Below, one piece after another: positions 26,298-44,397 of a stretch of DNA of 64,000 nucleotides. Below the pieces are notes generated by a model. It searched no databases and had not been told where the DNA came from. It saw only the letters and a list, made by a program, of their open reading frames with translations. The translations under genes were made by a program, and so were the position numbers. The stretch covers positions 39,106 to 103,105 of the forward strand of contig JANSYP010000008.1 of the NCBI GenBank assembly GCA_024742405.1, read 5' to 3'. Positions within the stretch are counted from its first letter, which is position 1, and each line of letters opens with the position of its first letter. This stretch comes from Paracoccaceae bacterium (lineage in GTDB: Bacteria; Pseudomonadota; Alphaproteobacteria; Rhodobacterales; Rhodobacteraceae).

Positions 26298-26668
26298 ACG
26301 ACCATCTCCCTCGACAATGATCCTGCAAACTCAAGTATCAAAGCGTCCGGCGCAACCAGTTCGACTCCGCCCGCCTCCCGCAAAGCCCATGATCACAGGC
26401 ATCTCTGGTTGATCCGAAGTCCTCAAATTCGACCCAATGCTGTCGTTCAACCCGGTCGACAACCTCGTGGCTACTCTCGCATGGCGGACATTTTTGCGAC
26501 GCGAAAACCAGATGTGCACTGCAGGGCCGCGGACCTATGTCGGCACTGCATGATTTCGACGGGGACTCTTGATTGTCGAGGGCCTAGGGTGATGGAAATC
26601 AGGTGCCGACCGTGCCGGTCCTCGGTCCGGGTCGGAACCACCTGGTCTCACAAGGAGCGAGCACCATA

Positions 26669-27493: not shown

Positions 27494-28020
27494 TCAGTCG
27501 CTCCAAGCCTGCGAACTGCGCGTCGTCCTGTGTCCTCCCAGCAAGCGCTGAGCAAGGTCTTTGAGTCTTTCAGAGGGCCGTTCCTTTTTTGAGGACACGG
27601 CAAGCTTGGAAGTCATCCGAATTTCGCCGAGATAAAACTCCTTGTGCTCAGGTGACCGCCCAAACCGCTTGACGAAGATATTGTCTGGGTGCTTGCCACG
27701 ACAGTCCATTGAGAGTCGTATGCCCGCTTCGGTCAGCGGAGATCCCCAGCACCTCGGTGAACTGCGACCCCTTTTCCGTACTCGTAATCGCGGTCGGCCC
27801 GGGTTTGGCAATGACTAAATCTAGCGCGTCGGCACAAAAACCTGCCTGCCTCATGTGGCTGAGCCGCCCGCGCAGAATCCTTCACGTCGCCCAGTCCGCG
27901 ATCGCGACCAACGACAGAAGCCGGATTTGACAGGTGCGAACGCGAGGTCTGCACAGTAAACCCGGTTCGGGCGATCTAAGACCATCGGTTTTAGCGGGTA
28001 GAGACAAACAGGATTGTACA
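27494..28020 (-). mobile_element. IS3-family transposase OrfB remnant (multiple frameshifts)
   Basis: Pieces lie in three frames: DRPNRVYCADLAFAPVKSGF, TEKGSQFTEVLG, LTEAGIRLSMDCRGKHPDNIFVKRFGRSPEHKEFYL. These are DDE integrase-core motifs of IS3-type OrfB. Confidence 0.55.
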
Positions 28021-28099
28021 GATTACGTTGGCTCGTCCGTCGGCGATTGCAGATGGTATCCAAGTCGAGCGGCGCGATCAGACGTGTTCGTTTTGCGTG

Positions 28100-28559
28100 T
28101 TGGTGCATGACGGGCCTCTGATCCGTCGGGAGGAGGGTTTCGGGTGCCGGTGGGTGGTCGGCGAGGGCGCTGTGCGGCCTGGCAATCCTGTCGTGCCGCC
28201 GCCAGGTTATCGAGGGTGATCTGGAACGCTCGCAACGAGCGGAGGATCTCCCGGTTGAGCAGCTCCCCGCGGAACCGGGCAGTGACGCGCTCCACGTCGC
28301 CGGTTTCCCAAGGTGAGCCGGGGTCGATGCAGACGGCCGTCGCACCGAGGGCGGCAATCCGGTCCCGAGCCGCCCGGGCCCCCATCCCACCATCCTGTCG
28401 CCTCCTGTCGTCGTGGGTCTGCGACGCTATGTGCACCTCGCGGACCCCATCGACGCGCGCCACGCCTTGCCCGAAGAAAGCGTCAGCCAGACGCAGCTTC
28501 GCGCCAATTTCCTCGCGCTTGTCTCCCTCGTGCGCCATTCCGGCTCCTCCCTTCGCCAA
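28100..28559 (-). mobile_element. Second transposase (integrase-core) remnant
   Basis: CIDPGSPWETGDVERVTARFRGELLNREILRSLRAFQI, and in another frame RPHSALADHPPAPE: the C-terminal part of an rve-type transposase. Confidence 0.5.
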
Positions 28560-28592
28560 CCACCGAAGTGGAGCAGTTCAGATTCGTTGGCA

Positions 28593-28952
28593 TCAGTTGA
28601 ACCCGCCTTGCGTCGCCGTCCAGATCGGGCCCGAAAGCCAGCGTTCGATGGTGGCGACGGAGAGGGCAGGGGCGCTGCCGGTTGGCGCCGCGAGATCCGC
28701 TGCGTACAAGCCGACCAGCTTGGGGGATGAGGGCACGGGATCCGCCCCGCCAATCCGGCACCGACGAGTAAAATGGGACCGATCTGCTTTGTGGGCTCTC
28801 ACAGAGTTCTTGGAGGCGGCGTTACGGACATAGCCTCTTGTGGGTTCTACCACTCGATCAAGGCTGCCTGAGCCGGCAACATGCGCGGGCAGAATGTTGT
28901 CATCGGCGGTGTCCTGTGCCACTTCGGCGAGCCGGTTTTCTCCGTTTTTCAT
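28593..28952 (-). pseudogene. N-terminal (SAM-like domain) fragment of a tyrosine recombinase/integrase
   Basis: SVRAHKADRSHFTRRCRIGGADPVPSSPKLVGLYAADLA....SVATIERWLS resembles the integrase N-terminal domain. There is no catalytic domain; it is cut off next to the IS debris. Confidence 0.5.
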
Positions 28953-28989
28953 ACTTACTGTCTATGACGGTTCCATGTGACGGGTGTAG

Positions 28990-29175
28990 GTGAACCTGAC
29001 GCTTGATGCCGAATTTGCGAAAACGGTGCGGGAGCTTTGTCTGAGCATGTCGCGCTTGGCGGATTCGGCGGTCTCGCAGGCTGCCAAGATCGACCGCAAC
29101 CGGCTTTGGCGCCAGAACAACCAAGCGCTGATCGATACATATGCCGAGGAAGTCGAACGGGATGGCTTGGCTTAG
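28990..29175 (+). CDS. ccdA: CcdA-family antitoxin
   Basis: ORF track, 61 aa (GTG start). ...RNRLWRQNNQALIDTYAEEVERDGLA matches the CcdA C-terminal pattern (W..EN..AI..YN..VE..G). Confidence 0.55.
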   Translation: MNLTLDAEFAKTVRELCLSMSRLADSAVSQAAKIDRNRLWRQNNQALIDTYAEEVERDGLA

Positions 29176-29208
29176 TTCCGTTTTCGAACCGTCTAGACGG
29201 CCGTCTTA

Positions 29209-29469
29209 ATGGCTCTGTTTGACCTCTTTCGCCTGACCGGCGGGCAGCTTGATGTCGATCTGCAACCGGATCTGATTGGCATCAATGCCTCGCGTATGGT
29301 GGACCCGTTGCGTGAGAAAAGCCGTTATGCGGCGTTTCCGGGTCTGACGCCCTCTGTCACTGTCGCGGGAAACGCGCTGAATCCCTCGAAACTGATGCCT
29401 TTAGGTCGGGGGCTGCGTTCTTGGTGCGTGATCGGCTGCTCACAGATCCGGCCCATGGTGTGCCCGTGA
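29209..29469 (+). CDS. ccdB: CcdB-family toxin (C-terminus possibly degenerate)
   Basis: ORF track, 86 aa. MALFDLFRLTGGQLDVDLQPDLIGINASRMVDPL resembles the CcdB N-terminus (M.QFDVY....Y.LDVQSDLL..L.TRVVVPL). Starts 33 nt after ccdA. Confidence 0.5.
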   Translation: MALFDLFRLTGGQLDVDLQPDLIGINASRMVDPLREKSRYAAFPGLTPSVTVAGNALNPSKLMPLGRGLRSWCVIGCSQIRPMVCP

Positions 29470-30580
29470 GGTCACCTGCCAACCGGCAGGCGCTGATGGC
29501 GGCCAAGGCTACCTCGAAACGTGAAGGACATACGGCGCGGCAGGGCAGTGTTCGCGACGCCTAGCATCTGACGTGCCAGGCGAGGCAAGGGGCCCGATGG
29601 TAAGCTCCTAGCCTTCTGGCGGGAGACTTCGAGTGTGTGATAGACGTTTTGCGATCTTGTAGGGCCGGACCTCGCTGTTGAAGCGGACGGGCAGGGGGCT
29701 GACCGGGTGATTCAGCAGCGCATTCTCGAGCCCCTTGAAGACACGATCCGACTGGCCCGTGAACTCGCCCACTGTGCTGGTGTGCTGCCCGCGCTGACGC
29801 CGAAGCTCCGAGCGAAGGGGTCTGACGCAGCCGTAGAACTCTTCCTGACAGAGAATGCGGTTGCGCCTGCATCGACGCTCTCGCCGCGCCTCCGCGGAAC
29901 GTCGATCTTTATGATCTCCCGCGCCGCTCGTCTCTTCTACGACCGTCGTGTTGGGCTTGGTGTTGCGCAGGAACTGACGGGTTGGCCGACCTTCCGGCTC
30001 TACGGGATCGCGCCATGACAGCAACAACCGGACGAAAGCCAGCCGAGTCGGACCGGAAGGTCTTCGACCCGGAGCTGGAGGACCTGACGTGCCTCCTTTA
30101 CATGGACCTGATGGCAAGTGGTCCGCGATCACCGTGTCCAAGGCGCCGAATGTATTCGTGACGACGGACCAGTTCGTCGCGACCTTGGCCTGACGTCGCT
30201 CCGCAACCTACCGGATCAGGAGGAGGTGGGTGGGGCGTGCAGGCTGTGAGCTCTCCCGTCGAGATCCGTCGCACAGATCCACGAGACGTCGCGCTGCTAT
30301 GTCCGGTCGAGACGTTGGGGATGATTGGCAAGCAGGACCATCTCCGGTCATAGCAGTGTGCTTCAAAGCCAACCTGAGAAACACCGAACCTAACATCCTG
30401 GGCCGTCAGGACCTGACTATCAAACGCTCACCGGACGCCGCTTTCGCCGACGAGCGCCGGACGCGTGTCGATGCTTTCGTGCGCGCAGATTTCGGCATCG
30501 CCAGGTCGTTGCGGCTGCTCCGCAACGAAACCGGGGGGCGATCTGAAACCGAGCTTGTCCACGTGCCGCACGTCTGTTTT

Positions 30581-30596
30581 ACAAATGTCGATTTGT
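30581..30596. promoter_or_regulatory. Palindrome ACAAAT-GTCG-ATTTGT upstream of the ABC operon
   Basis: Read directly, about 30 nt before the ATG at 30628. The neighbouring TTTTGACATTTGA partially repeats the half-site. Confidence 0.3.
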
Positions 30597-30627
30597 TTTG
30601 ACATTTGATAGGGGCGCGCGCTAGTCG

Positions 30628-32154
30628 ATGTTAGGCGAAGGGGAGATCGCCGCGATTTTGGGGGGAAACGATTTGTCCCAGGCTCTGCTTGAGGTTGTCG
30701 GGTTGCAAAAGAGTTTTGGCGGGGTGGTTGCGCTCAGCCACGGCGAATTCTCATTGCAGCCAGGCTCGGTCCACGCGCTGTGCGGTGGAAATGGCGCGGG
30801 CAAATCCACGTTTCTCACCATCGTCATGGGCATTCAGAGTCGTGATGCAGGCTCAATCCGCGTCAAGGGGCGGGTTGTTAACTTTGAGAGACCTCAGGAC
30901 GCGCTTGCTGCTGGGATCAGTATCATAGAACAAGAACTCAGCCCGGTTCCTGCGATGTCAGTGGCCGAGAACATTTACCTCGGGCGAGAACCGGTGCGGT
31001 TTCTTGGACGGGTCGATTTTGCCGCGATGAATCGCGATGCCCAGCGGCTGCTGGATGAGCTGAAATTCGCGATCTCGGCCAAGACTCTGATGATGGATCT
31101 CAGCGTTGCGGAGGTTCAGCTCGTCGAGATTGCCAAGGCGCTGTCCTATGATGCCGAGGTGATCATCATGGACGAGCCGACGTCGGCCCTGGGCGAAGCG
31201 GAGGCGGATCAGCTGTTTGCAGCGATCACCCGGCTGAAAGAGGCGGGCAAGGGCATCATATATGTCAGTCACCGGCTGTCGGAAATCTTTGAGATTGCGG
31301 ACAGTTACACCGTTTTCCGTGACGGCGCCTTTGTGGGGAGCGGCGCTCTGGCCGATGTAACACGTGATGATCTGATCCAGATGATCGTAGGCCGGACACT
31401 GAACGAAGAGTTCATCAAAGAGAACGAACCCATGGCTGAGATGGCGCTCTCGGTGTCCGGGCTGAATGCAGAAGGCGCCGTGCGCGATGTGTCCTTCAAC
31501 GTCCACCGAGGTGAGATCCTGGCACTCTACGGCCTTATGGGGTCGGGGCGGAGCGAGATTTTCGAGCGCCTCTTCGGTCTGACCGAGGACCGGGGCGGAG
31601 AAATACGTCTCTTCGGCGCGCCTGTCGATTTCCGATCACCCAAAGAGGCGATCGACATGGGGCTGGCCCTTGTCACCGAAGACCGCAAGGGTTCTGGCCT
31701 TGTGCTCACCAGCGATGTCCGCTCGAATATCTGCCTCACCCAGCTTGAACAGCTTTCCTTCGGGCCGGTGATGGAGCCTGCGCGCGAGGCCGATGCCGCG
31801 GAGCGGATGATCAACATGTTCAGGATAAAGACAGCGTCGGACCGGCTGGAAGTGTCGGATCTCTCGGGCGGAAACCAGCAGAAAGTCGTGCTCGGGAAGT
31901 GGTTCTTGACCAGCCCGAAGGTGTTGCTGCTCGACGAGCCGACACGCGGAGTAGACGTGGGCGCCAAGCGAGAGATTTACCGCATCATGTCGGACTTCGC
32001 CCAAGCAGGCGGTGCTATCGTGATGATCAGTTCGGAGACCGACGAAGTGCTCGGCATGGCGGACCGGGTCGTGGTGATGCGCGACGGGCGTGTCAGCGGC
32101 GAGGTTCCGCGCTCTGAGTTAAAAGCCGAAACACTCGTCCATCTGGCTGCCTAG
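30628..32154 (+). CDS. Sugar ABC transporter ATP-binding protein (two ABC domains, RbsA/MglA-like)
   Basis: ORF track, 508 aa. Walker A GGNGAGKST plus a second ABC half (LSGGNQQK). The start is uncertain (a TTG at 30673 is possible). Confidence 0.9.
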   Translation: MLGEGEIAAILGGNDLSQALLEVVGLQKSFGGVVALSHGEFSLQPGSVHALCGGNGAGKSTFLTIVMGIQSRDAGSIRVKGRVVNFERPQDALAAGISIIEQELSPVPAMSVAENIYLGREPVRFLGRVDFAAMNRDAQRLLDELKFAISAKTLMMDLSVAEVQLVEIAKALSYDAEVIIMDEPTSALGEAEADQLFAAITRLKEAGKGIIYVSHRLSEIFEIADSYTVFRDGAFVGSGALADVTRDDLIQMIVGRTLNEEFIKENEPMAEMALSVSGLNAEGAVRDVSFNVHRGEILALYGLMGSGRSEIFERLFGLTEDRGGEIRLFGAPVDFRSPKEAIDMGLALVTEDRKGSGLVLTSDVRSNICLTQLEQLSFGPVMEPAREADAAERMINMFRIKTASDRLEVSDLSGGNQQKVVLGKWFLTSPKVLLLDEPTRGVDVGAKREIYRIMSDFAQAGGAIVMISSETDEVLGMADRVVVMRDGRVSGEVPRSELKAETLVHLAA

Positions 32155-32158
32155 CTCG

Positions 32159-33175
32159 ATGGCGCAAGGAGCCCCCTCTATGTCGGCACGCTCGGACAGG
32201 GCCCGCGACCTGAAGACGCTCGCGGCGCGATATGGTCAGAAATACGGGATCCTCGCGGCTCTGGTGCTGGTCTGCTTAGCGCTGACCGTTGCGAACGAGT
32301 TTTTTCTGACGCCGCGCAACATCGTCAACGTGCTGCGGCAGGCCTCGATCAACGGAATTCTCGCGATCGGCATGACGTTTGTCATCCTGACCCGCGGAAT
32401 AGATCTGTCGGTGGGCTCAGTCGTAGCTTTGGCTGGGGTGGTGTCGGCGTCTTTGGCAACGACTTCGTCGACCGCTGGCGCCCTGGGCGGACCATATCCG
32501 GCATTGATAGCGCTTTCGGCAGGTTTGCTTGTGGGGATCGCCTGTGGCTGGGTGAATGGGGTCATCGTGGCCCGTTTCAGCGTGCCGGCATTCGTGGCGA
32601 CGCTTGGCATGCTCTCCGCAGCGCGAGGGATCACTCTGCTCTATGCGGATGGGCGCCCAGTCCCGGCCCTGACCGATGGATACCGCTATATCGGACGGGG
32701 CGATATCTTTGGCATTCCACTGCCTGTGGTGCTGTTCGCGCTCGTCTTTGTCTCCGCAGTATGGGTGCTGAACTACACCCGCTTCGGCCGTTGTATCTAC
32801 GCGGTGGGTGGCAATCCCCACGCAGCGCGGGTCTCGGGCATCAATGTCCGGCAAGTCAAGATCGGCGTTTACATGATTGCCGGGGCCCTGGCCGGTCTGG
32901 CGGGGATGCTCCTGGCCGCAAGGACCGGCTCTGCGCTGCCCCAGGCGGGCATCGCTTACGAACTCGACGCTATTGCTGCCGTAGTGATTGGCGGTACTTC
33001 GCTCGCCGGTGGAGTCGGTCGTGTGACCGGCACTCTCATCGGGGCGCTGTTGATTGCGGTGGTCAATAACGGGCTCGATCTGATGGGGGTCGAGTCCTAC
33101 TACCAGCAGGTCATCAAAGGCGCCCTGATCGTGGCCGCCGTGATGCTCGACCAAGCCCGACACAAATCGACTTAG
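32159..33175 (+). CDS. Sugar ABC transporter permease (RbsC-like)
   Basis: ORF track, 338 aa. Polytopic, with GIDLSVGS and GGTSLAGG motifs. Confidence 0.9.
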   Translation: MAQGAPSMSARSDRARDLKTLAARYGQKYGILAALVLVCLALTVANEFFLTPRNIVNVLRQASINGILAIGMTFVILTRGIDLSVGSVVALAGVVSASLATTSSTAGALGGPYPALIALSAGLLVGIACGWVNGVIVARFSVPAFVATLGMLSAARGITLLYADGRPVPALTDGYRYIGRGDIFGIPLPVVLFALVFVSAVWVLNYTRFGRCIYAVGGNPHAARVSGINVRQVKIGVYMIAGALAGLAGMLLAARTGSALPQAGIAYELDAIAAVVIGGTSLAGGVGRVTGTLIGALLIAVVNNGLDLMGVESYYQQVIKGALIVAAVMLDQARHKST

Positions 33176-33251
33176 ACAAAACAGAGGCGAAGGGACTGTC
33201 TTTCCGAGAGCAAACCGAAACACCGTGCTTACACCAAGGAGGAGATGCACA

Positions 33252-34238
33252 ATGCCGAAACTACTGAAAGCCTTGACCCTATCGACGGCCCTACTTTCCG
33301 CCACGGCAGCCGTTGCCGATGACGACATCAAGGTCGGTGCCGCAGTCTACGGGTTGAATGCGGAGTTCATGCAAATCTGGTCGGCCGCCTTGGAAGAGCA
33401 CCCAGCCGTTAAAGAAGGGATGGTTGACCTCACGATTTTCGACGGCCGCTATGACGCGCTGGTGCAACAGGACCAGTTCGAGACCATGATCACCCAAGGT
33501 TTCGACGCAATCATCTTCGTGCCGATCGATGTTGAGGCCGGTGCCGCCGCGGTCGAAGCGGCCCATGAGGCAGGCATCCCTGTCTTCGGGTCCAATACCC
33601 GGGTGAACAGCGACCTCTTGAATGCGTATGTCGGCTCAGACGATGTGCAGTCGGGCTACATGGAAGCCAAATATGTGCTCGATCAGATAGGATGCACTGG
33701 CAACGTCGTCATCATCGAAGGCCCCATCGGTCAGTCGGCACAGATCCAGCGTCTGGAAGGCAACGAAAAAGCGTTGGCTGAATGTCCGGACGTCAAGGTG
33801 CTGGAGCAGCAGACCGCCAACTGGTCGCGGGCCGAGGCACAGACCCTCATGGAAAACTGGCTGACCGCCCATCCCGGCGAGATCAATGGCGTGATTGGTC
33901 AGAACGACGAGATGGCCCTGGGTGCGATCGAAGCGATCAAAGCCGCGGGTCTCGACGTCAGTGATTTCGCCATTGCCGGGATCGACGGGGTGACCGACGC
34001 GCTGCTTGCGGTGAAGTCCAACGAGATGGCTTCTATCCTGCAGGACGGTGCGGCCCAGGCTCAAGGCGCGCTCGACCTCGCGCTCAAGGCGATCAACAGC
34101 GACTATGAACCCATGTCGGAAATCTGGGAACAGTATCCGGACATGCCGTGGAACAACGGCGCCGACCCCGAGTACAGTGTGCCGTGGACGCCGGTCACCA
34201 TGGAAAATGTCGACGACTTGCTTGCCAAGCGCCAATAG
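33252..34238 (+). CDS. Sugar/polyol ABC transporter periplasmic binding protein (RbsB-like)
   Basis: In-frame ATG at 33252 after AGGAGGAGA. Signal peptide MPKLLKALTLSTALLSATAAVA. Confidence 0.88.
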   Translation: MPKLLKALTLSTALLSATAAVADDDIKVGAAVYGLNAEFMQIWSAALEEHPAVKEGMVDLTIFDGRYDALVQQDQFETMITQGFDAIIFVPIDVEAGAAAVEAAHEAGIPVFGSNTRVNSDLLNAYVGSDDVQSGYMEAKYVLDQIGCTGNVVIIEGPIGQSAQIQRLEGNEKALAECPDVKVLEQQTANWSRAEAQTLMENWLTAHPGEINGVIGQNDEMALGAIEAIKAAGLDVSDFAIAGIDGVTDALLAVKSNEMASILQDGAAQAQGALDLALKAINSDYEPMSEIWEQYPDMPWNNGADPEYSVPWTPVTMENVDDLLAKRQ

Positions 34239-34308
34239 ACAGCCCTGCTCTGTCCCGGCGTTTGCCGCGTTCGGGGCAGAGCTATTCTGACAGCAAGGGA
34301 CAAATGCC

Positions 34309-35079
34309 ATGCCGACGACCGGACCCGAGGCCCTCGACTTTACATATCCGCTGGAGGGGAAGACCGCTCTGGTAACCGGCGCGGCTTCCGGCATTGGCGC
34401 GTCGATTGCGGAGGCCTTGGACGAAAAGGGTGTCCGGGTGGCGGTGCTGGACCTCGACAAGGACGCCGCTGCGCAGAAAGCTGAAACGCTCAAAGAGGCG
34501 ATTGCAGTCCACTGCGACGTGGCGGATGCGGCTTCGGTCCAAGCTGCTGTGAGCCAGGTTGCGATGAGCTTTGGGCATGTCGACATCCTCGTCAACTGCG
34601 CCGGGATCGTCGATCTCGCCCCTGCTGAAGAGCTGTCTTTGAGTGCCTGGCAACGCACCCTCGATATCAATCTGACTGGCAGTTTCCTGGTCGCACAAGC
34701 CGTGGGGCGCTTGATGATCGCGCGCGGCAGCGGGCGGGTAATCAACATGGCCTCACAGGCGGGTACGGTCGCCATCAACGAACACGTGGCTTACTGCGCG
34801 TCCAAATTCGGGGTGATCGGGCTGACGAAAACCTTGGCGGCGGAGTGGGGCAAGCACGGGGTTACCGTGAATTCCATTTCGCCCACTGTGGTGCTCACCG
34901 AACTCGGCAAGACCGCCTGGGCCGGAGAAAAAGGTGAAGCGGCGATCAAGCAAATCCCTTCGGGTCGGTTCGCCGAGCCGGTGGAGATTGCTGCCGCGGC
35001 GGTGTTTCTCGCCTCTGATGCCGCGGCAATGATCAATGGTGCGGATCTCATTGTCGATGGTGGCTACACGGTCAAGTAA
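34309..35079 (+). CDS. SDR-family polyol/sugar dehydrogenase
   Basis: ORF track, 256 aa. TGAASGIG cofactor motif and YCASK catalytic motif. Confidence 0.9.
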   Translation: MPTTGPEALDFTYPLEGKTALVTGAASGIGASIAEALDEKGVRVAVLDLDKDAAAQKAETLKEAIAVHCDVADAASVQAAVSQVAMSFGHVDILVNCAGIVDLAPAEELSLSAWQRTLDINLTGSFLVAQAVGRLMIARGSGRVINMASQAGTVAINEHVAYCASKFGVIGLTKTLAAEWGKHGVTVNSISPTVVLTELGKTAWAGEKGEAAIKQIPSGRFAEPVEIAAAAVFLASDAAAMINGADLIVDGGYTVK

Positions 35080-35086
35080 GGACAAA

Positions 35087-36082
35087 ATGATGCAGCGTTT
35101 TCTCAATGACCCCGACAACATCGTGGATGAGACTGTGGCGGGTTTTGTGCGCGCCCATAGCGATATCGTCCAGCTTGATCCGAACAATTCGCGGGTCGTG
35201 GTTTCGCGTTTCGCCGGCGGGGAAAACCGCGTCGGGATCGTGACGGGCGGTGGCTCCGGCCATGAGCCCGCGTTTCTCGGCTATGCTGGCAAGAACATGG
35301 TCGATGCAGTGGCCGTGGGCGAGATCTTTTCCTCTCCCACCGCCAAGAGCTTTCACGATGCCATCAAGGCGGCCGATGGGGGCGCCGGCGTTGCGGTTCT
35401 CTACGGCAACTACGCCGGCGACAACATGAACGTGAAGATGGCGCAAAAGATGGCCGGTAAGGACGGCGTCGATGTACAAACCGTCGTAGCCAACGACGAT
35501 GTCTGTTCGGCACCGCTCGAAGAACGCGAAAAGCGCCGCGGTGTGGCGGGCGAGATCTTCATGTGGAAAGTCGGTGGCGCCATGGCGGCAACTGGCGCGT
35601 CACTGCCTGCCGTGATCACTGCCGCGCAAAAGGCCATCAACAACTGCCGGTCGGTGGGGCTCGGGCTCGGGCCATGCACGCTGCCCGCGGTTGGGCATCC
35701 GAACTTCGAAATTGCAGCCGGCAAAATGGAGGTCGGGATCGGCCACCACGGCGAACCCGGCACACATGTTGAGGACTTGCGATCGGCTAACGAGATTGCC
35801 GACGACATGGTCAAGCTGGTCTTGGACGACCATGACTTGCCTGCGGGAACGGAGGTCGCAGTGCTTGTGTCTGGGTTGGGCGCAACACCAGTCAACGAGC
35901 TCTACGTGCTCTATGATCGCATCGCGGGGCAAATCGAGGCACGAGGCCTAACACTTTATCGGAGCCTCGTTGGGAACTACTTCACCTCGCTGGAGATGGT
36001 CGGAGCGACGCTTACGGTTATGGCCCTGGATGATGAACTGAAGACGCTTCTTGATACGGACACAATCAGTCCGGGCTATTGA
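35087..36082 (+). CDS. dhaK: Dihydroxyacetone-kinase-type subunit DhaK
   Basis: In-frame ATG at 35087. Motifs GGGSGHEPAF, YAGDNMNV, MEVGIGHHGEPG. Confidence 0.9.
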   Translation: MMQRFLNDPDNIVDETVAGFVRAHSDIVQLDPNNSRVVVSRFAGGENRVGIVTGGGSGHEPAFLGYAGKNMVDAVAVGEIFSSPTAKSFHDAIKAADGGAGVAVLYGNYAGDNMNVKMAQKMAGKDGVDVQTVVANDDVCSAPLEEREKRRGVAGEIFMWKVGGAMAATGASLPAVITAAQKAINNCRSVGLGLGPCTLPAVGHPNFEIAAGKMEVGIGHHGEPGTHVEDLRSANEIADDMVKLVLDDHDLPAGTEVAVLVSGLGATPVNELYVLYDRIAGQIEARGLTLYRSLVGNYFTSLEMVGATLTVMALDDELKTLLDTDTISPGY

Positions 36083-36095
36083 AGGAGGGCCGCCA

Positions 36096-36734
36096 ATGGA
36101 GTCGATCCCAAACCAAGGCGCAGGCGTCATCATCTCGGAAATCGCTGCGATGATCGTCGAGAACAAAGCCTATCTGTCCGAGATCGACGGAAAGATTGGC
36201 GACGGCGATCACGGGGCCAACATGGCCAAGGGTTTTGGCCGCGCGGCGGAACGGCTCGATCCGGACGGTACATTGAACGACGCAATGGCGCTTTTGTCCG
36301 GTGTGCTCATGTCAGAGATCGGCGGCTCTATGGGCCCGCTCTACGGGATGATGTTTTCGGACATGGCAGATGCCGTGGAAGGCGCAGAAGTGATCGATGC
36401 AGAGCGCTTTGCGCAAATGATCCGGGCCGGGCTTGATGGCGTACAGAGCATCGGCTCCGCGACCGTCGGAGACAAGACCTTGGTCGACACCTATGTTCCC
36501 GCCGTAGATACGTTCGACGCGGCGCGCGCACGGGGCGACAGTTTCGCGGAAGCGCTTTCGTCAATGCAACGCGCGGCAGAGACCGGACGGGACAGCACAA
36601 CGGATCTCGTGTCAAAGGTCGGTCGCTCTGCTCGGCTCGGAGAACGTTCCCGTGGAGTTGTGGATGCCGGCGCCACCTCCTGCTGCATGATCCTCTCGGG
36701 CTTTGCCACCGGCATTGCCGCGCGGCTTGCCTGA
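36096..36734 (+). CDS. dhaL: Dihydroxyacetone-kinase-type subunit DhaL
   Basis: In-frame ATG at 36096 after GAAGGAGGG. Motifs DGKIGDGDHGANM, GDKT, GRSARLGERSRGVVDAGA. Confidence 0.9.
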   Translation: MESIPNQGAGVIISEIAAMIVENKAYLSEIDGKIGDGDHGANMAKGFGRAAERLDPDGTLNDAMALLSGVLMSEIGGSMGPLYGMMFSDMADAVEGAEVIDAERFAQMIRAGLDGVQSIGSATVGDKTLVDTYVPAVDTFDAARARGDSFAEALSSMQRAAETGRDSTTDLVSKVGRSARLGERSRGVVDAGATSCCMILSGFATGIAARLA

Positions 36735-36777
36735 GTTGGCTTGCAAAAGCCGATCGCGCGCAGGATCCTGGACAAGT

Positions 36778-37419
36778 ATGGATGACATAGACGGCCAAAT
36801 CTTGATCGACTTCTTTCGAGCCGCGGCGACGCGTCTCGATATGGACCGCCAGAGGCTTTGCGCTCTGGACGGTGAAATCGGTGACGGAGATCATGGCACT
36901 TCGATGGCCAACGGGTTCGCTGCCGTGTCCCGCCGATTGCAGCAAATAAAGGGACAAGACCCCGCACCGGCACAGGTTATGCGCTATGCTGCCTCGGCTT
37001 TCATTGGCGAAGTCGGGGCAACTGTCGGCCCGCTCTATGCAACGGGTTTTCTCGAAGCGGCGAGGCTGTTGGAAGAACGGCGCTTGGCAACCACGGACTT
37101 AGCCGAACTCATCGATGCAATTGCGCGCGGAATTGCCCTGCGAGGAGATGCGTGTCTCGGCGACAAGACCATGCTGGATGCTTGGTTGCCTGCGGGGCAG
37201 GCAGCGCGAGATGCCGCCGATGCCGGCGCTGGAGCTGCGCAGGTCGCCCGGGCCGCGGCAGAAGCCGCCTTGCGCGGCGCCCAAGCGACAAAGGGCATGA
37301 TCGCCAGCCGTGGGAGAGCCGCGAGACTTCAAGAACGCAACCTGGGACATTTGGATCCGGGGGCTGCGTCAGCTGCCGTGATTCTGGAAGCGTTTGAAGA
37401 GACAGTGACGGAGGCTTGA
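36778..37419 (+). CDS. Second DhaL paralogue
   Basis: In-frame ATG at 36778. Motifs DGEIGDGDHGTSM, GDKTMLD, GRAARLQERNLGHLDPGA. Its stop overlaps the start of the next gene (TGATG). Confidence 0.85.
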   Translation: MDDIDGQILIDFFRAAATRLDMDRQRLCALDGEIGDGDHGTSMANGFAAVSRRLQQIKGQDPAPAQVMRYAASAFIGEVGATVGPLYATGFLEAARLLEERRLATTDLAELIDAIARGIALRGDACLGDKTMLDAWLPAGQAARDAADAGAGAAQVARAAAEAALRGAQATKGMIASRGRAARLQERNLGHLDPGAASAAVILEAFEETVTEA

Positions 37420-39476
37420 TGCCCCATCCCAAGAAGAGGACCGCAAAGGACACGCAATCGCCCAAGCCGCCGCTGCGGTTCGGAGAAGACCCGCTGCTCT
37501 GGGTCAGTTGGCTTTACTATGAAGAAGGTCTGACACAGGGTGAAATCGCCCGGATCGTCGGAGCTTCGCGTCCAACGGTAAATGCCTATCTCGCCGAAGC
37601 GCGCACCAAGGGCATTGTGAGTATCGCGATAAGCTATGAGAAACTGCGGTCCACGACGCTTTCGAGCGCACTCACCGAACGTTTTGGTCTCGACGATTGT
37701 TTGATCATCCCCGGCGAGGGAGGAGACCGGGCCTTGATCGACCGGCTCGGTTCGGCGACCGCCCAAGCCTTGCCGCGTGTTCTGCATTCGGGCGATACAA
37801 TTGCGATCACTTGGGGGCGGACGATGCTGTCCGTCGCCGACGCGGCCAAGGATCTGCATCTCCGAGACGCCACGGTCGTCCAGGCTACCGGCGGCACAAC
37901 CGCGACAATACCCTATACACCAGAAGCTTGCGCGACCCGCTTGGCCGACAGTATCGGCGCGCGTTTCGTACCGATCTCTGCCCCTGCAATCGTCTCCAGC
38001 CCGGAAGCCCGGCGGATATTGGAGCAAGAGCCGGTTGTTTCGGAACAGCTTCAAATGCTGGGCCAGGTGAACAGGATACTGTTTGGCCTTTCTTCACTTC
38101 GGCCGACTTCGACGATCCATTCCAGCGGGTTTTTCGAAGGTTCGATTCAGCAACAGGCGCAATATGGCCAAGCGATCGGGTCCTTGGCAGGACGCTTCAT
38201 TGACGGGACCGGCGCGATCATTGAGGGACCGCTTGGCGATAGAACAATCGGGATCGGTCTTGATGCGTTGCGTGCAATAGAAACCCGCATTCTGGTGTCG
38301 GGCGGCTATGACAAGGTCCCACCGATGCTGGCTGCGCTTCGCGGGAACTACGTCACCGTTCTTGTGACCGACGCGGCGACGGGCGAGGGTATCCTGCGAG
38401 CCGACGGGCTGGAGCTGGACTCTCCGCGGCCGCATCTCAAAGAAACTGCGCCGATGGTGACACCGGTTCGTGGGCGACGGAAGCAGTTTATCAATCGCAC
38501 AAAGAATGCAGTGGACGAGGCGCTTGAGGGAGCTTTGATGGCCTATCCGGGCCATATTGAAAAGATCGGCGACACGGTCCGGGCCATCCGCGCCGTTGCA
38601 CAGAAGCCCCCAGGCAAGGTCGGTATCGTGATCGGCGGCGGGGCCGGGCATGAGCCGAGCTTTCTTGGATTTGTTGGGCGTGGCCTCCCCGATGCCGTGG
38701 CCGTCGGCAACGTCTTTGCCTCGCCGCCACCGGACCGGGTTCTGGCTTGCGCGCGGGATGCCGACGACGGTGCCGGAGTGCTCTTCATCTACGGAAACTA
38801 CACCGGCGACATAATGAACTTTGACATGGCGGCGGAGCTTGCCGAGGCAAATGGTATTACGGTGCGCTCTATCCAAACAACCGACGATATCGCTTCGGTC
38901 AGCGATAATGACCGCGCCGCCGGCCGAGGTATCGCCGGCAGCATCTTTGTATTCAAAATCTCCGGCGCAGCGAGCGCGCGGCTCTACTCACTAGACGAAT
39001 GCGAAAGGATCGCACGCAAGGCCAATGCATCTTGCTACACGATCGGAGTGGCGCTCGAACCGGGCTCGAGCCCCGAGACACAGCGCCCGAGCTTCCAGCT
39101 AGGCGAGGCGGATATGGAGTTCGGCGTTGGCGTTCATGGAGAGCCCGGCGCGCTGCGTCAGCCCATGACCAGCGCCGACCGTATCGTCGATCAGATATGC
39201 GACCGGCTGTTTGAGGAAATGGCGCTGAATGAGGGCGATCGCATCGCGGTGCTGGTCAACTCCTTCGGAGGTACCCCGATGATGGAACTTTTCATACTGA
39301 ATCGGCGGCTCAACCAGCGGCTGGCCAAGCGTAACATTACTGTGCACAAGTCCCTTGTCGGGAATTTTTTCACATCCCTAGATATGGTCGGCGCCTCGGT
39401 TACGCTTCTAAAGCTCGACGAAGAATTGACTGGTCTGTTGGATGATAGTTGCGAAGGTTTCGCCTACTCTCAGTGA
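37419..39476 (+). CDS. Fusion protein: SorC-family sugar-binding transcriptional regulator (N) + DhaK domain (C)
   Basis: ORF track 37416..39476. N-terminal HTH LTQGEIARIVGASRPTVNAYLAEARTKGIV plus a SorC effector-domain-like ~300 aa. The second half carries GGGAGHEPSF, YTGDIMNF and MEFGVGVHGEPG, i.e. a complete DhaK. Confidence 0.88.
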   Translation: MPHPKKRTAKDTQSPKPPLRFGEDPLLWVSWLYYEEGLTQGEIARIVGASRPTVNAYLAEARTKGIVSIAISYEKLRSTTLSSALTERFGLDDCLIIPGEGGDRALIDRLGSATAQALPRVLHSGDTIAITWGRTMLSVADAAKDLHLRDATVVQATGGTTATIPYTPEACATRLADSIGARFVPISAPAIVSSPEARRILEQEPVVSEQLQMLGQVNRILFGLSSLRPTSTIHSSGFFEGSIQQQAQYGQAIGSLAGRFIDGTGAIIEGPLGDRTIGIGLDALRAIETRILVSGGYDKVPPMLAALRGNYVTVLVTDAATGEGILRADGLELDSPRPHLKETAPMVTPVRGRRKQFINRTKNAVDEALEGALMAYPGHIEKIGDTVRAIRAVAQKPPGKVGIVIGGGAGHEPSFLGFVGRGLPDAVAVGNVFASPPPDRVLACARDADDGAGVLFIYGNYTGDIMNFDMAAELAEANGITVRSIQTTDDIASVSDNDRAAGRGIAGSIFVFKISGAASARLYSLDECERIARKANASCYTIGVALEPGSSPETQRPSFQLGEADMEFGVGVHGEPGALRQPMTSADRIVDQICDRLFEEMALNEGDRIAVLVNSFGGTPMMELFILNRRLNQRLAKRNITVHKSLVGNFFTSLDMVGASVTLLKLDEELTGLLDDSCEGFAYSQ

Positions 39477-40490: not shown

Positions 40491-40601
40491 GCCCGTGCGC
40501 GGCAAGGCGCAGTCCGACCTCAGAGCGATGTGTGCAACAAGGCCGGTCCTGAGCCTAAAGCTCCGGACAATCACAGAAAAAATTTTAAATTGTTTTTTTG
40601 G

Positions 40602-40627
40602 GGAACGGAATGCGGCAAGCACGCGTT
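40602..40627 (+). promoter_or_regulatory. EcfG-type (general stress) promoter GGAAC-N17-CGTT
   Basis: GGAAC at 40602-40606 and CGTT at 40624-40627, preceded by an AT-rich tract. Lies 35 nt upstream of the ATG at 40662. Confidence 0.55.
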
Positions 40628-40661
40628 GTCGGGGCAGATTGGTTCTTTGGAGTTACCCATT

Positions 40662-41057
40662 ATGACTGATGAGGAATTCGACACCAAAAGATACCTGGAC
40701 GAGTCTGGAAATGACGACGGATTATCCAGTGCGCGTATGATCGGAAGCTTGGTATTGACAGTAATGCTCTACCCGGTCTTCGCGGTCTGGTTATTCTTCC
40801 AGGGTTTCACCATTCTTCAGATCTTTTTCATCGTTTGGCTGGTCGGTTCATTCTTTTTCGTTGGCCTGTTGATCGTCTCCGATCTGGTTTCCGACTGGAT
40901 AAAGCGACCTACCAGAAAAAATTTGAAGCGCTACAAAGATTTGCGTGGAATCTCTGCCTTGGTTCAACCCGCTGCCGCCTTGGAAAGCTTGCCGATCGCA
41001 AACGCGCGGAAACGACCACCGAGAAACCGATACCGCGCAAGACTGAGATCTTCCTAG
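40662..41057 (+). CDS. Small membrane protein, unknown function (visibly AT-richer codons)
   Basis: In-frame ATG at 40662 within track ORF 40530..41057. Two to three TM segments (LVLTVMLYPVFAVWLFF, ILQIFFIVWLVGSFFFVGLLIV) and a basic tail. Confidence 0.55.
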   Translation: MTDEEFDTKRYLDESGNDDGLSSARMIGSLVLTVMLYPVFAVWLFFQGFTILQIFFIVWLVGSFFFVGLLIVSDLVSDWIKRPTRKNLKRYKDLRGISALVQPAAALESLPIANARKRPPRNRYRARLRSS

Positions 41058-41162
41058 CGGATCAGAATTCGACGCCCTTGCCCGTGGGTGCATTACACGG
41101 GTCCCACAGACGCGCTGATCGCCCGTTCAGGTAAGCTGGACGATGGAACTGAGTTCAATCGG

Positions 41163-41936
41163 ATGGAGTATTCTGTGCCCAATCATTCGAGAGATAATAG
41201 CAGAACAGCAGCCTTCGCAGCGGGTTTGGTTTCGCTCGCGTTGGCAGGTCTGGCGTTTCCGGCATTTTCCGACGCTCCGAGCGGGCGAGCGTTGCTGCCC
41301 GAAGCCGAACAGGATGAATGGTTGGCGATCGGCCGGTTGAATGTGGCGCCGGCCCAAGGTCACTGTACTGCCACCCTTATCGCGCCGGATGTGGTGCTGA
41401 CGGCAGCGCATTGTGTCACCAATCCTCTGAACAATCGCCCCTATGCGGTTGGAAAGCTGCATTTTTTGGCCGGGTTCAGACAGAGCGCATTTGCCCATCA
41501 TGGCCGTGTTGTGAAGGTGGAAATCGCCGAAGGCTTTCTTCAAGGCGGGCAGGCTATGCAACGGGATCTCGCGCTTGTGCACTTGGACGCACCCGTTGCG
41601 GAGCATATCGCGCCAATCCCGCTCGCCCCACCGTCGACGCTCGTTGGGTTCTCCCAGGTCGACGTCTTCAGCTATGGCCGCGACCACGCATTCATCGTTT
41701 CGGTCCAGCGTGATTGCGACATTCTTTCCCGCCACAGCACAGTGTTGAAAACCAACTGCGAAGCGGTACCCGGCGTCTCCGGCGCTCCGCTTATCCTGGA
41801 GGGAGCAAGCGGTCCTAGCTTGGCCGGTTTGATCGTTGGTGCAAACAGCTCGGATATGCCTTTGAACCCCGGACCCGGCGCGGCGGCCGTAATCGTCGAC
41901 CCGATAGCGTTCGATGCCCTCCTAGGCGATCTCTAG
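41163..41936 (+). CDS. Secreted trypsin-like (S1) serine peptidase
   Basis: In-frame ATG at 41163. Leader AAFAAGLVSLALAGLAFPAFS. Catalytic triad context TAAHCV, RDLALVHL, GVSGAPL. Confidence 0.8.
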   Translation: MEYSVPNHSRDNSRTAAFAAGLVSLALAGLAFPAFSDAPSGRALLPEAEQDEWLAIGRLNVAPAQGHCTATLIAPDVVLTAAHCVTNPLNNRPYAVGKLHFLAGFRQSAFAHHGRVVKVEIAEGFLQGGQAMQRDLALVHLDAPVAEHIAPIPLAPPSTLVGFSQVDVFSYGRDHAFIVSVQRDCDILSRHSTVLKTNCEAVPGVSGAPLILEGASGPSLAGLIVGANSSDMPLNPGPGAAAVIVDPIAFDALLGDL

Positions 41937-42088: not shown

Positions 42089-43834
42089 TCAGGGCGATGC
42101 CGCGGCGGTCCCGTTGTCGTCGTCACCGGGATCAAAGCCGGCTCGGGTAAAACGAACGCGGACCGTATAGCTGTTTTCGTCGACATCGAACTCGATCCTC
42201 CCATTGAGCTGCGTCGCGAACGCTCTCATCAGGTTGGTGCCGAGTCCCGTGCCGCCGAGATGAGCGTCGCCGCTGACGGTCAGGCCCGCTGCAGGCGCGA
42301 TACCGTTTGCAATCTCGACGGAGATCTCGCCGGTCTCCGCGACCTTCAAAACCAGGCGCAGCCATTTCTCGGAATCGGCATGCCCCATGTATTTCAGCGC
42401 GTTGGTCGTCGCTTCGGCCACGAGAAGGCTGAGCGGCACCGCTTGGTCGGGATAGAGCGTCACGTCTTCAAGCTGACTGTCGAAGGCGATCGATCCGTCG
42501 GCGCCTTGGCCCAAAGACAGGATCTGATCGGTGATCTCGGTGAGCATCAGCGCGGCGTGCACCTTGCTGAGATTTTCGGTCCGATACAGGTTCCGGTGAA
42601 TCGTCGCGAGCCCCAGCACCCGGTCCTGCAGCCGCTGCACCACGGCCTTGGCCTCGGACGACTTCACCTCCCGCATCTGCATGTTCATGATCGAGATGGT
42701 GAGTTGGAGGTTGTTTGTGACCCTGTGGTGGACTTCTCTCAGCAGGACGCTCTTGTCGTGCAGCAACTGCTCCAGCGCCGCCTCATCACGCAAGACCTTG
42801 TGGACCATCCCTTCAAAGGAATGGTGAATATCGGTGATCACCGCCGACGCATTGCTGCTTTCCAGGCCATCCGGAACGGTTCTGCTATCTGCAAAGGCCC
42901 GCATCTGCCGACGCAACCGGCGGATATGGCGCGTGACCAGACGGTGAATGGCAACGAACGCGACGCCCAAGCTCGCCAGCCACATGATCACCGGAAAGAA
43001 CTGTGGCGGGATAGCGAGCACACCGCCCGCGGCGATCGAGGTTCGCTGCCACGTTCCGAGCGCATAGACCGTATCGTCGAATATCGGCACCACGGCGAAG
43101 CTGCGCATGTCGCCTGACGCGCGCCGTTCGCGGAATGTCGTCGTTTCGCTGCCCACAAGGCTTGCCAGACTGCGCGTTTGCGGCAGCACGTCGACCGAAG
43201 TCTCGTCATCTTGTCCGCTGCCCGTGAGGAACTGGCCGTTGGCTGTAAAGGCTATGACCGTGAAGTCCTCCTGCGACGGCTCCGCGCTCTGGAAATCGAA
43301 GAGTTCGAGCGGCACCGACACAAAGACGAAGCCGGCAAAGCGCGCTTCGCGGTAAACTGGCTGCATGATCACGATCACCGGACGGCGGCTGATTGGCGCG
43401 TTGGCGCTCACTTCGACGAAAGCACGGGGATCTGCAACGGCGGCGCGCCATTCCGGTAAGTCCTTGAAGTCGTAGCGGATCCCGTTGGAGGTGCACAGAG
43501 TATGGCCATCCTTTCTGATCACTCCGACAGTGATTGCAGTGTCTTGGGTCTCAACGAAGGACGCCAGACGCTGTTCGCACTGAACGCTCTCCTCCCAGGT
43601 GTCGGTTGCCAAAGGTATCAACCCGACGGACATCCCGAAGGCGCGCTGGATGATCTCGCGTTCCGCCAGGGCGGCCTCTTGGGTCAGGCCCACTAGCAAG
43701 TCGTTTGCGCGCTCATCAGCCTTTTGAACGATACTGGCGGTTTGCATCCCAGCCAGCAAACCGACCGGGATCAGCGCCAAAGACAAAAACAGAACAAGGC
43801 GCACCGCGAGGCTGCGGCGCAGTTTTGAAAGCAT
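42089..43834 (-). CDS. HWE/HisKA_2 sensor histidine kinase with a large periplasmic domain, co-oriented with ecfG-nepR
   Basis: ATG at 43834, 5 nt after the ecfG stop, within track ORF 42089..43993. TM1, about 270-aa loop, TM2, then LLREVHHRVTNNLQLTISIMNMQ (HisKA_2 H-box) and an ATPase domain. Confidence 0.88.
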   Translation of the reverse strand: MLSKLRRSLAVRLVLFLSLALIPVGLLAGMQTASIVQKADERANDLLVGLTQEAALAEREIIQRAFGMSVGLIPLATDTWEESVQCEQRLASFVETQDTAITVGVIRKDGHTLCTSNGIRYDFKDLPEWRAAVADPRAFVEVSANAPISRRPVIVIMQPVYREARFAGFVFVSVPLELFDFQSAEPSQEDFTVIAFTANGQFLTGSGQDDETSVDVLPQTRSLASLVGSETTTFRERRASGDMRSFAVVPIFDDTVYALGTWQRTSIAAGGVLAIPPQFFPVIMWLASLGVAFVAIHRLVTRHIRRLRRQMRAFADSRTVPDGLESSNASAVITDIHHSFEGMVHKVLRDEAALEQLLHDKSVLLREVHHRVTNNLQLTISIMNMQMREVKSSEAKAVVQRLQDRVLGLATIHRNLYRTENLSKVHAALMLTEITDQILSLGQGADGSIAFDSQLEDVTLYPDQAVPLSLLVAEATTNALKYMGHADSEKWLRLVLKVAETGEISVEIANGIAPAAGLTVSGDAHLGGTGLGTNLMRAFATQLNGRIEFDVDENSYTVRVRFTRAGFDPGDDDNGTAAASP

Positions 43835-43839
43835 CTCGT

Positions 43840-44397
43840 TCAAGCTGCGGCGATTTTGGTCGCGGACATCATGGCCAGGGTGGTCCGGTCCATCATCTCG
43901 AGACTGTCTTCGGTCTTCAACCCAAGGAAGTCTTTCAAACGTGCACGCCCGCGGTTCACGCGGCTCTTTATCGTGCCCGCTGCAACGCCGCACATTTCGG
44001 CCGCTTCCTCGTAGGAAAACCCCGATGCGCCTACCAGTACCAGCGCTTCGCGCTGTTCGTCAGTCAGCTTGGCAAAGGCCACCGCGAAGTCCCGCATCGC
44101 AAGACGCCCGTCATGCGCGGGCCGCTCCGACAGGGCGGCGGTCAGCGCACCGTCCACATCTTCGATCTCGCGCGCTGATTTGCGGCGCTCCGAATAGAAG
44201 GTGTTGCGCAGGATGGTGAAGAGCCAGGCCCGCATTTCGGTGCCCGGTTGAAACTGTTCGATATTCGCCCAGGCTTTCAGCAGCGCTTCCTGTACCAGGT
44301 CATCAGCGCGCTCGGGATTGCGTGCCAGACTGTGGGCAAAGGCGCGCATCTCCGGAAGGTATTCTACGATCTGCTCGCGCGGGTCCGCAGAGCTCAC
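43840..44397 (-). CDS. ecfG: ECF sigma factor, EcfG family
   Basis: ORF track, 185 aa (GTG start). Sigma-70 regions 2 and 4 (DLVQEALLKAW, FSYEEAAEMCGVAAGTIKSRVNRGR). GTGA overlap with nepR. Confidence 0.9.
   Translation of the reverse strand: MSSADPREQIVEYLPEMRAFAHSLARNPERADDLVQEALLKAWANIEQFQPGTEMRAWLFTILRNTFYSERRKSAREIEDVDGALTAALSERPAHDGRLAMRDFAVAFAKLTDEQREALVLVGASGFSYEEAAEMCGVAAGTIKSRVNRGRARLKDFLGLKTEDSLEMMDRTTLAMMSATKIAAA

Follow-up and report, generated by a model that had tools for sequence, protein, structure and literature searches.

A SorC-type regulator fused to a complete DhaK domain and adjoined by a second DhaL in a conserved alphaproteobacterial gene cluster

Dihydroxyacetone kinase subunits are textbook enzymes that moonlight as transcriptional co-regulators, and two such solutions are known, DhaR in Escherichia coli and DhaS/DhaQ in Lactococcus. 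In E. coli, DhaK reportedly acts as a co-repressor and DhaL·ADP as a co-activator of DhaR, a separate AAA+/Fis-type activator to which the catalytic K and L subunits bind non-covalently, and DhaM of the phosphotransferase system (PTS) recharges DhaL. In Lactococcus lactis, DhaQ together with dihydroxyacetone is said to activate the TetR-type regulator DhaS. This study concerns a third arrangement, a 685-amino-acid (aa) open reading frame (ORF) in which a SorC-type regulator is fused to a DhaK domain, encoded in a 64,000-nucleotide stretch of a Paracoccaceae bacterium genome (assembly GCA_024742405.1, contig JANSYP010000008.1, positions 39,106 to 103,105; hereafter the window). A sequence-only reading of the window, generated by a model without database searches, had singled out this ORF. 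The evidence presented here makes it probable that the fusion is a SorC/DeoR-type regulator with a dedicated DhaL partner, DhaL2, and an operator at the promoter of its operon.

Comparison with these two systems shows partial likeness to each. As in E. coli, K and L parts of a dihydroxyacetone kinase would feed the transcription factor of the dha genes; unlike in E. coli, that factor is a regulator with a SorC-type helix-turn-helix (HTH), the K paralogue is dedicated and fused to it, the L paralogue is likewise dedicated, and the cluster contains neither DhaR nor DhaM. As in L. lactis, regulation would, in the reading proposed here, be the task of a DhaK paralogue in which the site of covalent ligand binding is preserved. 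DhaQ, however, stands free, helps to activate a regulator of the TetR type, and lacks a DhaL paralogue of its own, whereas the fused DhaK is tethered to a SorC protein and accompanied by DhaL2, and no TetR-type gene was conserved in the cluster across 80 loci. The fusion system works like the DhaR and DhaS/DhaQ circuits, yet is a member of neither.

The fusion ORF lies on the + strand and runs from TTG at 37416 or ATG at 37419 to a TGA at 39474-39476, its length being counted from the ATG. Pfam HTH families matched residues 33-70, the Sugar-bind family PF04198 (IPR007324) matched residues 78-327 (E=1.1e-54; 185.8 bits against a cut-off of 27; profile positions 5-256 of 257), and the Dak1 family PF02733 matched residues 372-680 (E=1.8e-109; 365.9 bits; profile positions 2-310 of 313). 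These matches and the alignments described below bore out the original description of the ORF as a SorC-type HTH and sugar-binding regulator followed by a full DhaK. In an alignment of 71 fusion sequences, the mean majority fraction was 0.84 in the HTH (residues 18-72), the best-conserved segment of the protein, 0.72 in the effector domain (78-327), 0.74 in DhaK (355-680), and 0.39 in the linker (328-354), which varies in length from 26 to 37 aa across the family. An AlphaFold2 monomer model had a mean predicted local distance difference test score (pLDDT) of 82.7 and a predicted template modeling score (pTM) of 0.73; pLDDT dropped under 50 in just three segments (1-19, 68-71, and 335-348), and the prediction bears out separate domains and a disordered linker. 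No solved structure covers both halves.

A search over 5.8 billion proteins returned 567 matches, and the best 120 clusters were examined; in addition, the best 80 loci, one genome per species, were surveyed by calling ORFs and classifying them by phmmer against the window proteins. All 120 clusters contained proteins of 668 to 911 aa with both domains and 55-71% identity over 97-100% of the query, and all 80 loci, each from the genome of a different species, matched fusion residues ~1-685 in one frame. Plasmid and chromid records covering at least 80% of the query numbered 103, including pSymB of Sinorhizobium meliloti 1021 (312605-314539). Carriers include Tropicimonas, Aliiruegeria, Marivita, Gemmobacter, Paracoccus, and others among the Rhodobacterales, and Rhizobium, Ensifer/Sinorhizobium, Mesorhizobium, Shinella, Brucella/Ochrobactrum, and Aureimonas among the Rhizobiales. 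Beyond both orders, the fusion was found in Thalassospira, in Spiribacter onubensis (locus L015), a gammaproteobacterium, and in a Sphingomonas metagenome-assembled genome (MAG; locus L037). The last two have the complete cluster with fusions 54-62% identical, which suggests horizontal transfer of the whole unit. The distribution survey proposed with the sequence-only reading thus reveals a fusion that is widespread in alphaproteobacteria.

After clustering at 50% identity the fusion family collapsed to one representative, and the next relatives were ~340-aa stand-alone SorC regulators at 36-43% identity, indicating a single fusion event. No split forms were present among the close relatives of the fusion, and the nearest stand-alone SorC relative (P0122) was found on short contigs beside an unrelated transporter. 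Many members carry the NCBI name [quoted passage not shown] as does the window fusion itself (MCR9089093.1), so the suspicion that such fusions carry automatic annotation labels was correct. The architecture is already labeled in databases; what is new here is the conserved cluster, the pairing with DhaL2, the candidate operator, and the lack of any other co-travelling regulator.

Members of the SorC family act as tetramers (dimers of dimers) on two half-operators and have NagB-like phosphosugar-binding effector domains; their characterized effectors are all phosphosugars, dihydroxyacetone phosphate (DHAP) included, and CggR is released from DNA by fructose bisphosphate and DHAP, the latter with a dissociation constant of ~3 µM (PMC11229326). 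The regulator half of the fusion aligned end to end with Bacillus subtilis DeoR (E=2.6e-34), Klebsiella pneumoniae SorC, and E. coli LsrR (E-values ranging to 8e-26), the DNA-binding domains of these proteins aligning from fusion residue 23-30 onward. A set of 135 stand-alone SorC relatives has 55 columns that are conserved in 70% or more of the sequences, and the fusion family retains 50 of these columns, among them W132-G133-x-T135, G158, P189, R275, and G296-x-x-K299. The fusion did not reach the equivalog model for B. subtilis DeoR, NF053881 (180.6 bits against a cut-off of 420). Judged from its HTH, its PF04198 effector domain, and a candidate two-half-site operator, the fusion is assigned to the SorC/DeoR subfamily. 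It shares with B. subtilis CggR and DeoR the order of HTH and NagB-like effector domain and, in prediction, the two-palindrome operator layout, but differs in its attached enzyme domain, in having threonine in place of the covalent Lys141 of DeoR, and in the sequence of the operator. We know of no characterized SorC member with an enzyme domain.

The candidate operator was defined by scanning for TTGACAWWTGTCAA, with at most 3 mismatches, in 65 regions upstream of the cluster and in the rest of 1.6 Mb of loci. In total, 119 sites were found in 63 of the 65 upstream regions, with two sites in 37 regions, three in 8, and four in 1. Motif density upstream was 71-fold above that in the remaining sequence, and both arms were equally conserved. 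The commonest spacing between sites was 21 bp (24 cases), and the last site lay 20-100 nt before the start of the ATPase alignment. Where the arrangement of genes varies (L001, L018, L020, L024, L059, L064, L066, and L073), the dha unit still has the sites in front of its first gene. In the window, the double palindrome at 30578-30611 (Table 1) is the sole tandem pair of the motif in all 64 kb, and an inverted repeat found by a separate tool (I2, CAAATGTC/GACATTTG) links the two half-sites independently of the motif scan. In addition, words of the ACAAATG/ACATTTG type occur in 48 of 65 loci within the 330 nt upstream of the first cluster gene.

The region upstream of the cluster has no conserved gene family, the maximum being 8 of 62 loci, which leaves the fusion as the one regulator found together with the motif. 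Along with the operator layout known for the family, this co-occurrence suggests that the fusion binds the TTGACA-WW-TGTCRA operator, and the conserved double palindrome backs the earlier idea that the fusion regulates a promoter near 30.5 kb. A further match, ATGACMTTYGTCAT within ABC permease genes (window 32372-32385; ~25 loci, e.g., L033 5395 and L017 4910), was rejected as an extra operator, being coding sequence for MTFVI. Just 5' of the operator, positions 30506-30528 form a perfect 9-bp hairpin (TCGTTGCGG/CCGCAACGA).

The second half of the fusion aligned with E. coli DhaK such that His56, Asp109, and His218 correspond to H411 (in GGGAGHEP), D464 (in NYTGDIMNF), and H573 (in GVGVHGEPG), as had been proposed from the motifs. 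All three residues are invariant in fusion-family alignments of 16 and of 71 sequences, so by sequence the fusion carries a full Dak1 domain with the catalytic His/Asp/His and counts as a Dak1 family member. It fell short of two more specific models, those for PTS-dependent DhaK (TIGR02363; 366.2 bits against a cut-off of 406.25) and for DhaQ (TIGR02362; 227 bits against 413.25). A separate catabolic pair, DhaK1 and DhaL1, is encoded upstream, as the sequence-only reading had noted. Sequence identity is 40% between the fused DhaK and DhaK1 and 35% between DhaL2 and DhaL1, which makes the two K and two L copies old paralogues. Fused DhaK and DhaK1 have 79 fixed positions in common, catalytic ones included, and 29 positions that are fixed differently, several of them beside the active site (I465, F468, N431, and P437/P438).

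The gene for DhaL2 abuts that for the fusion. The last base of the dhaL2 TGA is the A of the fusion ATG (...GGAGGCTTGATGCCC...), and 5 nt ahead of this start codon is a GGAGG. Translational coupling had been proposed from this overlap, which is preserved in 34 of the 38 loci where dhaL2 comes first (25 as TGATG/TAATG and 9 as ATGA). Among the 80 loci, DhaL2 adjoins the fusion in both gene orders, lying 5' in 38 (the Rhodobacterales type) and 3' in 40 (the Rhizobiales type). It retains the signatures of E. coli DhaL, namely Asp30, Asp35, Asp37, His38, the GPL loop, GDKT, and GR, and across 78 DhaL2 sequences Asp30/35/37 and the GDKT and GR motifs are conserved. Two proteins, P0044 (911 aa) and P0088 (907 aa), are DhaL-SorC-DhaK triple fusions with the gene order of the window in one chain. 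Both come from MAG contigs, the DhaL end of P0088 looks frameshifted, and the two may be either errors or genuine stop losses. In 7 of the 80 loci (L021, L027, L040, L044, L060, L071, and L078), DhaK1 and DhaL1 also form one chain. The adjacency of DhaL2 and the fusion in both orders, the triple fusions, and the DhaK1-DhaL1 fusions define the pairs as DhaK1 with DhaL1 and the fusion with DhaL2. DhaL2 had been called a spare copy, a description that does not fit a gene kept beside the fusion in either order with all nucleotide and Mg residues intact; its conservation instead marks it as the predicted dedicated, nucleotide-competent partner of the fusion.

In Rhizobiales-type loci, ~200 nt separate dhaL1 from the fusion gene and contain a conserved GC-rich hairpin (…GCGCGATCCCGTG…CACGGGGTCGCGC…; e.g., L033 9792-9926). 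On its 3' side is a promoter-like element, TTGCAAA-N17-CATCTTC, with TTGCAAA in 29 of 39 loci and CATCTTC in 21 of 39, and no operator site was found upstream of the fusion gene in these loci. The hairpin is likely a terminator or attenuator followed by a separate promoter for fusion-dhaL2. A hairpin and a promoter-like element of its own, free of the operator, lay out fusion-DhaL2 as a separate regulator unit, which is probably expressed constitutively. In Rhodobacterales-type loci, the gap between dhaL1 and dhaL2 is ~60 nt and often opens with a CTTG[AC]A box, as in the window, where CTTGCA stands at 36740. A generic scan for sigma-70 promoters and terminators gave no enrichment over shuffled sequence, and its promoter types are not applicable.

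Almost all of the 80 loci encode an ATP-binding cassette (ABC) transporter ATPase, a permease, a binding protein, a short-chain dehydrogenase/reductase (SDR) of the GolD/DthD family, DhaK1, and DhaL1, followed by the fusion/DhaL2 pair. The window follows this pattern (Table 1), although the true start of the ATPase is possibly a TTG at 30673, which is preceded by GGGGGGA. Because DhaK1/DhaL1 are almost always present together with the fusion, the fused DhaK is not the sole kinase. Single-chain DhaK1-DhaL1, a form known from ATP-dependent kinases, hints by analogy that the catabolic pair uses ATP.

The transporter and dehydrogenase point to the substrate class. The closest solved relative of the SDR is PDB 4NPC ("sorbitol dehydrogenase"; 1e-96), and those of the binding protein are 4RSM, 5HKO, and 4RS3 (E=1.8e-47 to 3.3e-45), which we take to be polyol-binding proteins of Mycobacterium smegmatis, 4RSM presumably in complex with D-threitol. 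In that organism, threitols and erythritol are converted to erythrulose and then to erythrulose phosphate (bioRxiv 10.1101/2024.11.09.622817). Taken together, the binding-protein relatives, the GolD/DthD-type SDR, and the M. smegmatis pathway suggest conversion of a C4 (or C3) polyol to D-erythrulose (or dihydroxyacetone), and the most plausible input of the operon, as judged from its genes, is therefore a C4/C3 polyol that is oxidized to one of these two ketoses. The locus thus resembles the M. smegmatis D-threitol pathway (solute-binding protein, DthD, and DerK) in its ribose-type binding protein, GolD/DthD-family dehydrogenase, and Dha-family kinase. It differs in having another regulator and no erythrulose-phosphate isomerase genes in the cluster.

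Table 1. Positions of operon genes, fusion domains, key codons, and candidate regulatory sites in the window
Feature	Position	Strand	Basis or remark
Candidate operator half-site 1, TTTACAAATGTCGA	30578..30591		Consensus TTGACA-WW-TGTCRA
Candidate operator half-site 2, TTGACATTTGATAG	30598..30611		20 bp from site 1; overlaps -35-like TTGACA
ABC transporter ATPase, first operon gene	30628..32154	+	Pfam ABC_tran, 2 stretches; first gene conserved
ABC permease (BPD_transp_2)	32159..33175	+	Pfam; conserved in cluster
Periplasmic polyol/sugar-binding protein (Peripla_BP_4)	33225..34238	+	Pfam
SDR polyol dehydrogenase, GolD/DthD family	34309..35079	+	NF005309, 372 bits vs cut-off 286
DhaK1, catabolic kinase K subunit	35090..36082	+	Dak1, E=4.3e-109
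DhaL1, nucleotide-binding partner of DhaK1	36096..36734	+	Dak2, E=2.5e-50
Possible internal promoter for dhaL2 and fusion, CTTGCA-N18-GATCCT	36740..36775	+	Suggestive only
DhaL2	36778..37419	+	Dak2, E=8.9e-43; TIGR02365, 168.4 bits vs cut-off 138.3
SorC/DeoR-subfamily HTH DNA-binding domain, fusion residues 18-72	37470..37634	+	Pfam and alignment
NagB-like effector (phosphosugar) binding domain, fusion residues 78-327	37650..38399	+	PF04198 and alignment
Variable Arg/Ala/Pro-rich disordered linker, fusion residues 328-354 (27 aa)	38400..38480	+	Conservation, pLDDT
Complete DhaK (Dak1) domain, fusion residues 355-685 and stop	38481..39476	+	Pfam, alignments
Fused-DhaK codon H411	38649-38651	+	
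Fused-DhaK codon D464	38808-38810	+	
Fused-DhaK codon H573	39135-39137	+	

These features can be assembled into a mechanism in which the fusion would be the local repressor of its own eight-gene operon (30628-39476). A fusion tetramer (dimer of dimers) would sit on the two 14-bp palindromes, two helical turns apart and overlapping the promoter of the ABC-transporter gene, and each DhaK domain, held on a flexible 27-aa linker, would form with the translationally coupled DhaL2 a small but complete kinase of the Dha type, the sensor of the system. The transported polyol, probably D-threitol or a relative, would be oxidized to a short ketose (D-erythrulose or dihydroxyacetone), captured by the fused DhaK on His573, and phosphorylated by DhaL2·ATP. 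The phospho-ketose would then fill the phosphosugar pocket of the SorC domain, loosening the tetramer and derepressing the operon, after which bulk flux would be carried by DhaK1/DhaL1. We infer that control is by repression rather than activation, that fused DhaK works as a kinase with DhaL2, that ATP is the donor, which ketose is involved, and that the product is the signal.

Because the SorC pocket is kept and the effectors of the family are phosphosugars, signaling through the product of the kinase is no less likely than a conformational route like that of DhaQ/DhaR. The product-inducer model is preferred since it uses every conserved feature and fits the phosphosugar rule of the family. 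That a phospho-ketose made by fused DhaK·DhaL2 is the inducer acting on the SorC pocket is nonetheless put forward tentatively, at somewhat less than an even chance. Its stronger version, for which our confidence is lower again, is a self-priming repressor, a DNA-bound, constitutively made SorC tetramer whose own miniature kinase turns the first of the free, reactive ketose into the phospho-ketose inducer. If the preferred model holds, the conceptual analogue is BirA, the biotin ligase and repressor, in which one polypeptide likewise makes an effector and responds to it; BirA is unrelated in fold, chemistry, and family, and its product is a co-repressor where that of the fusion would be an inducer.

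Several observations weigh against this proposal or parts of it. The pocket is intact in outline but unlike characterized pockets in detail, since in the alignment Thr157 takes the place of the DeoR Schiff-base Lys141 and the sugar-contacting Asp of the "VGD" motif in DeoR, SorC, and LsrR is Ser or variable in the fusion; the conserved pocket motifs could reflect structural constraint only. Basal DhaK1/DhaL1 could yield the identical phospho-ketose and thus make a second kinase logically dispensable, and the covalent tether hints that physical coupling matters. DhaL2 resembles the PTS-type DhaL of E. coli, and differs from DhaL1, at His189 and Pro192, while the cluster has no DhaM; DhaL2 might be recharged by alphaproteobacterial HPr/EIIA-Man rather than by free ATP. 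No DhaM-like gene was found in the conserved cluster of the 80 loci or 3' of the S. meliloti copy, where an insertion sequence (IS) element lies. In the window, the dhaL2-fusion pair stands at the 3' end of the very operon it is to repress. TTGACA is also a -35-like hexamer, and the promoter could supply part of the motif signal. Finally, as the sequence-only reading had supposed, no functional study of the fusion was found in the literature searched, nor any paper with both "DhaK" and "SorC" or with the NCBI product name.

The strongest alternative is conformational sensing in the manner of DhaQ/DhaR, in which covalent capture of free ketose on His573 and the association of ADP- or ATP-bound DhaL2 would shift the DhaK dimers relative to the SorC tetramer and so release the DNA. 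The fused DhaK would then be non-catalytic or slowly cycling, and the SorC pocket structural or a secondary input. Precedents exist in E. coli DhaR and L. lactis DhaQ/DhaS, and a covalent tether with strict adjacency and coupling of DhaL2 suits a protein complex, so that this alternative explains the tethering better than product induction does. Fused DhaK and DhaL2 score nearer the PTS-type models, in keeping with the E. coli-like His189 and Pro192; some of the 29 positions fixed differently from DhaK1 flank the active site; and the whole-chain pTM of the AlphaFold2 prediction leaves room for domains that may pack together. A linker that is disordered, unconserved, and 26-37 aa long cannot, on the other hand, transmit strain, and the pocket residues of the SorC domain are conserved as in ligand-responsive relatives. 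The complete, conserved nucleotide site of DhaL2 exceeds the needs of a pure docking partner, and the cluster has no DhaR- or DhaS-type protein. We consider conformational sensing unlikely, if worth serious attention. The sequence-only reading had likewise assigned sensing to the DhaK half. Its view of DhaK as the sole sensor is weakened, since the SorC domain keeps 50 of 55 conserved residues.

Distinctly less probable is that the two halves do separate jobs without cross-talk, the SorC half sensing a phospho-intermediate made by DhaK1/DhaL1 and the fused DhaK with DhaL2 acting as a second kinase for another substrate, perhaps dihydroxyacetone or the opposite enantiomer of erythrulose, so that fusion only secures co-expression. 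M. smegmatis reportedly employs two Dha-family kinases for D- and L-erythrulose, a precedent for such a division of labor. The K and L copies, as old paralogues, are each under their own constraint, and the NCBI name itself says "bifunctional." Yet the fusion is more than 50% identical across Rhodobacterales, Rhizobiales, and beyond and is unsplit in close relatives, which argues for functional coupling, and the hairpin and operator-free promoter-like element of Rhizobiales-type loci are laid out as for a regulatory unit rather than an induced enzyme.

The possibility that two genes were falsely joined near 38400, by a stop or frameshift missed in sequencing or assembly, is excluded by the 120 clusters, 80 loci, and 103 plasmid and chromid records: the ~685-aa ORF is uninterrupted in the genomes of isolates from many genera as well as in closed replicons, pSymB among them, the linker aligns stop-free in 71 sequences, nothing in favor of an artefact was found for the fusion (only the triple fusions P0044 and P0088 could be of that kind), and the junction is real.

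The stretch at 24000-30600 that abuts the operon may be degraded or foreign; G+C content falls to 0.57-0.585 at 24-28 kb, and the larger ORFs at 25248-26669, 28144-28833, and 29608-30141 (− strand), as well as that at 21308-22558, matched no Pfam family. The genes 3' of the fusion in the window are unrelated. They include an ORF without an assigned family (40530-41057), followed by one for a trypsin-like serine protease (41088-41936; Pfam Trypsin, E=1.2e-12). On the − strand, a histidine kinase with dCache and HisKA_2/HWE domains (42089-43993) lies beside an extracytoplasmic function (ECF) sigma factor with PhyR_sigma2-like matches (43840-44397), and this pair at 42089-44397 has the layout of an alphaproteobacterial general-stress-response module. 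In S. meliloti 1021 pSymB (locus L081), the IS element directly 3' of dhaL2 consists of two ORFs, one with an HTH and one for a DDE_3 transposase (11832-12778); the PLSDB record of this replicon has one annotated feature in total.

For the window itself, an operon that had been annotated piecemeal can now be given a probable regulon and, as its probable substrate class, C3/C4 polyols. If the proposed role is correct, the fusion family would be a third, independent solution to the coupling of dihydroxyacetone kinase subunits to transcription, and the only covalent one, and it would bring the first regulator of the SorC family to contain an enzyme domain. Should the self-priming version hold, it would bring the BirA-like logic of an enzyme making its own effector to sugar operons and the SorC family, for which it is undescribed, and recharging of DhaL2 by HPr/EIIA-Man, if true, would wire the operon into PTS-based catabolite control. 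The fusion is widespread and tractable, with an orthologue on pSymB of S. meliloti 1021, and a defined operator, partner, and set of residues make the question testable.

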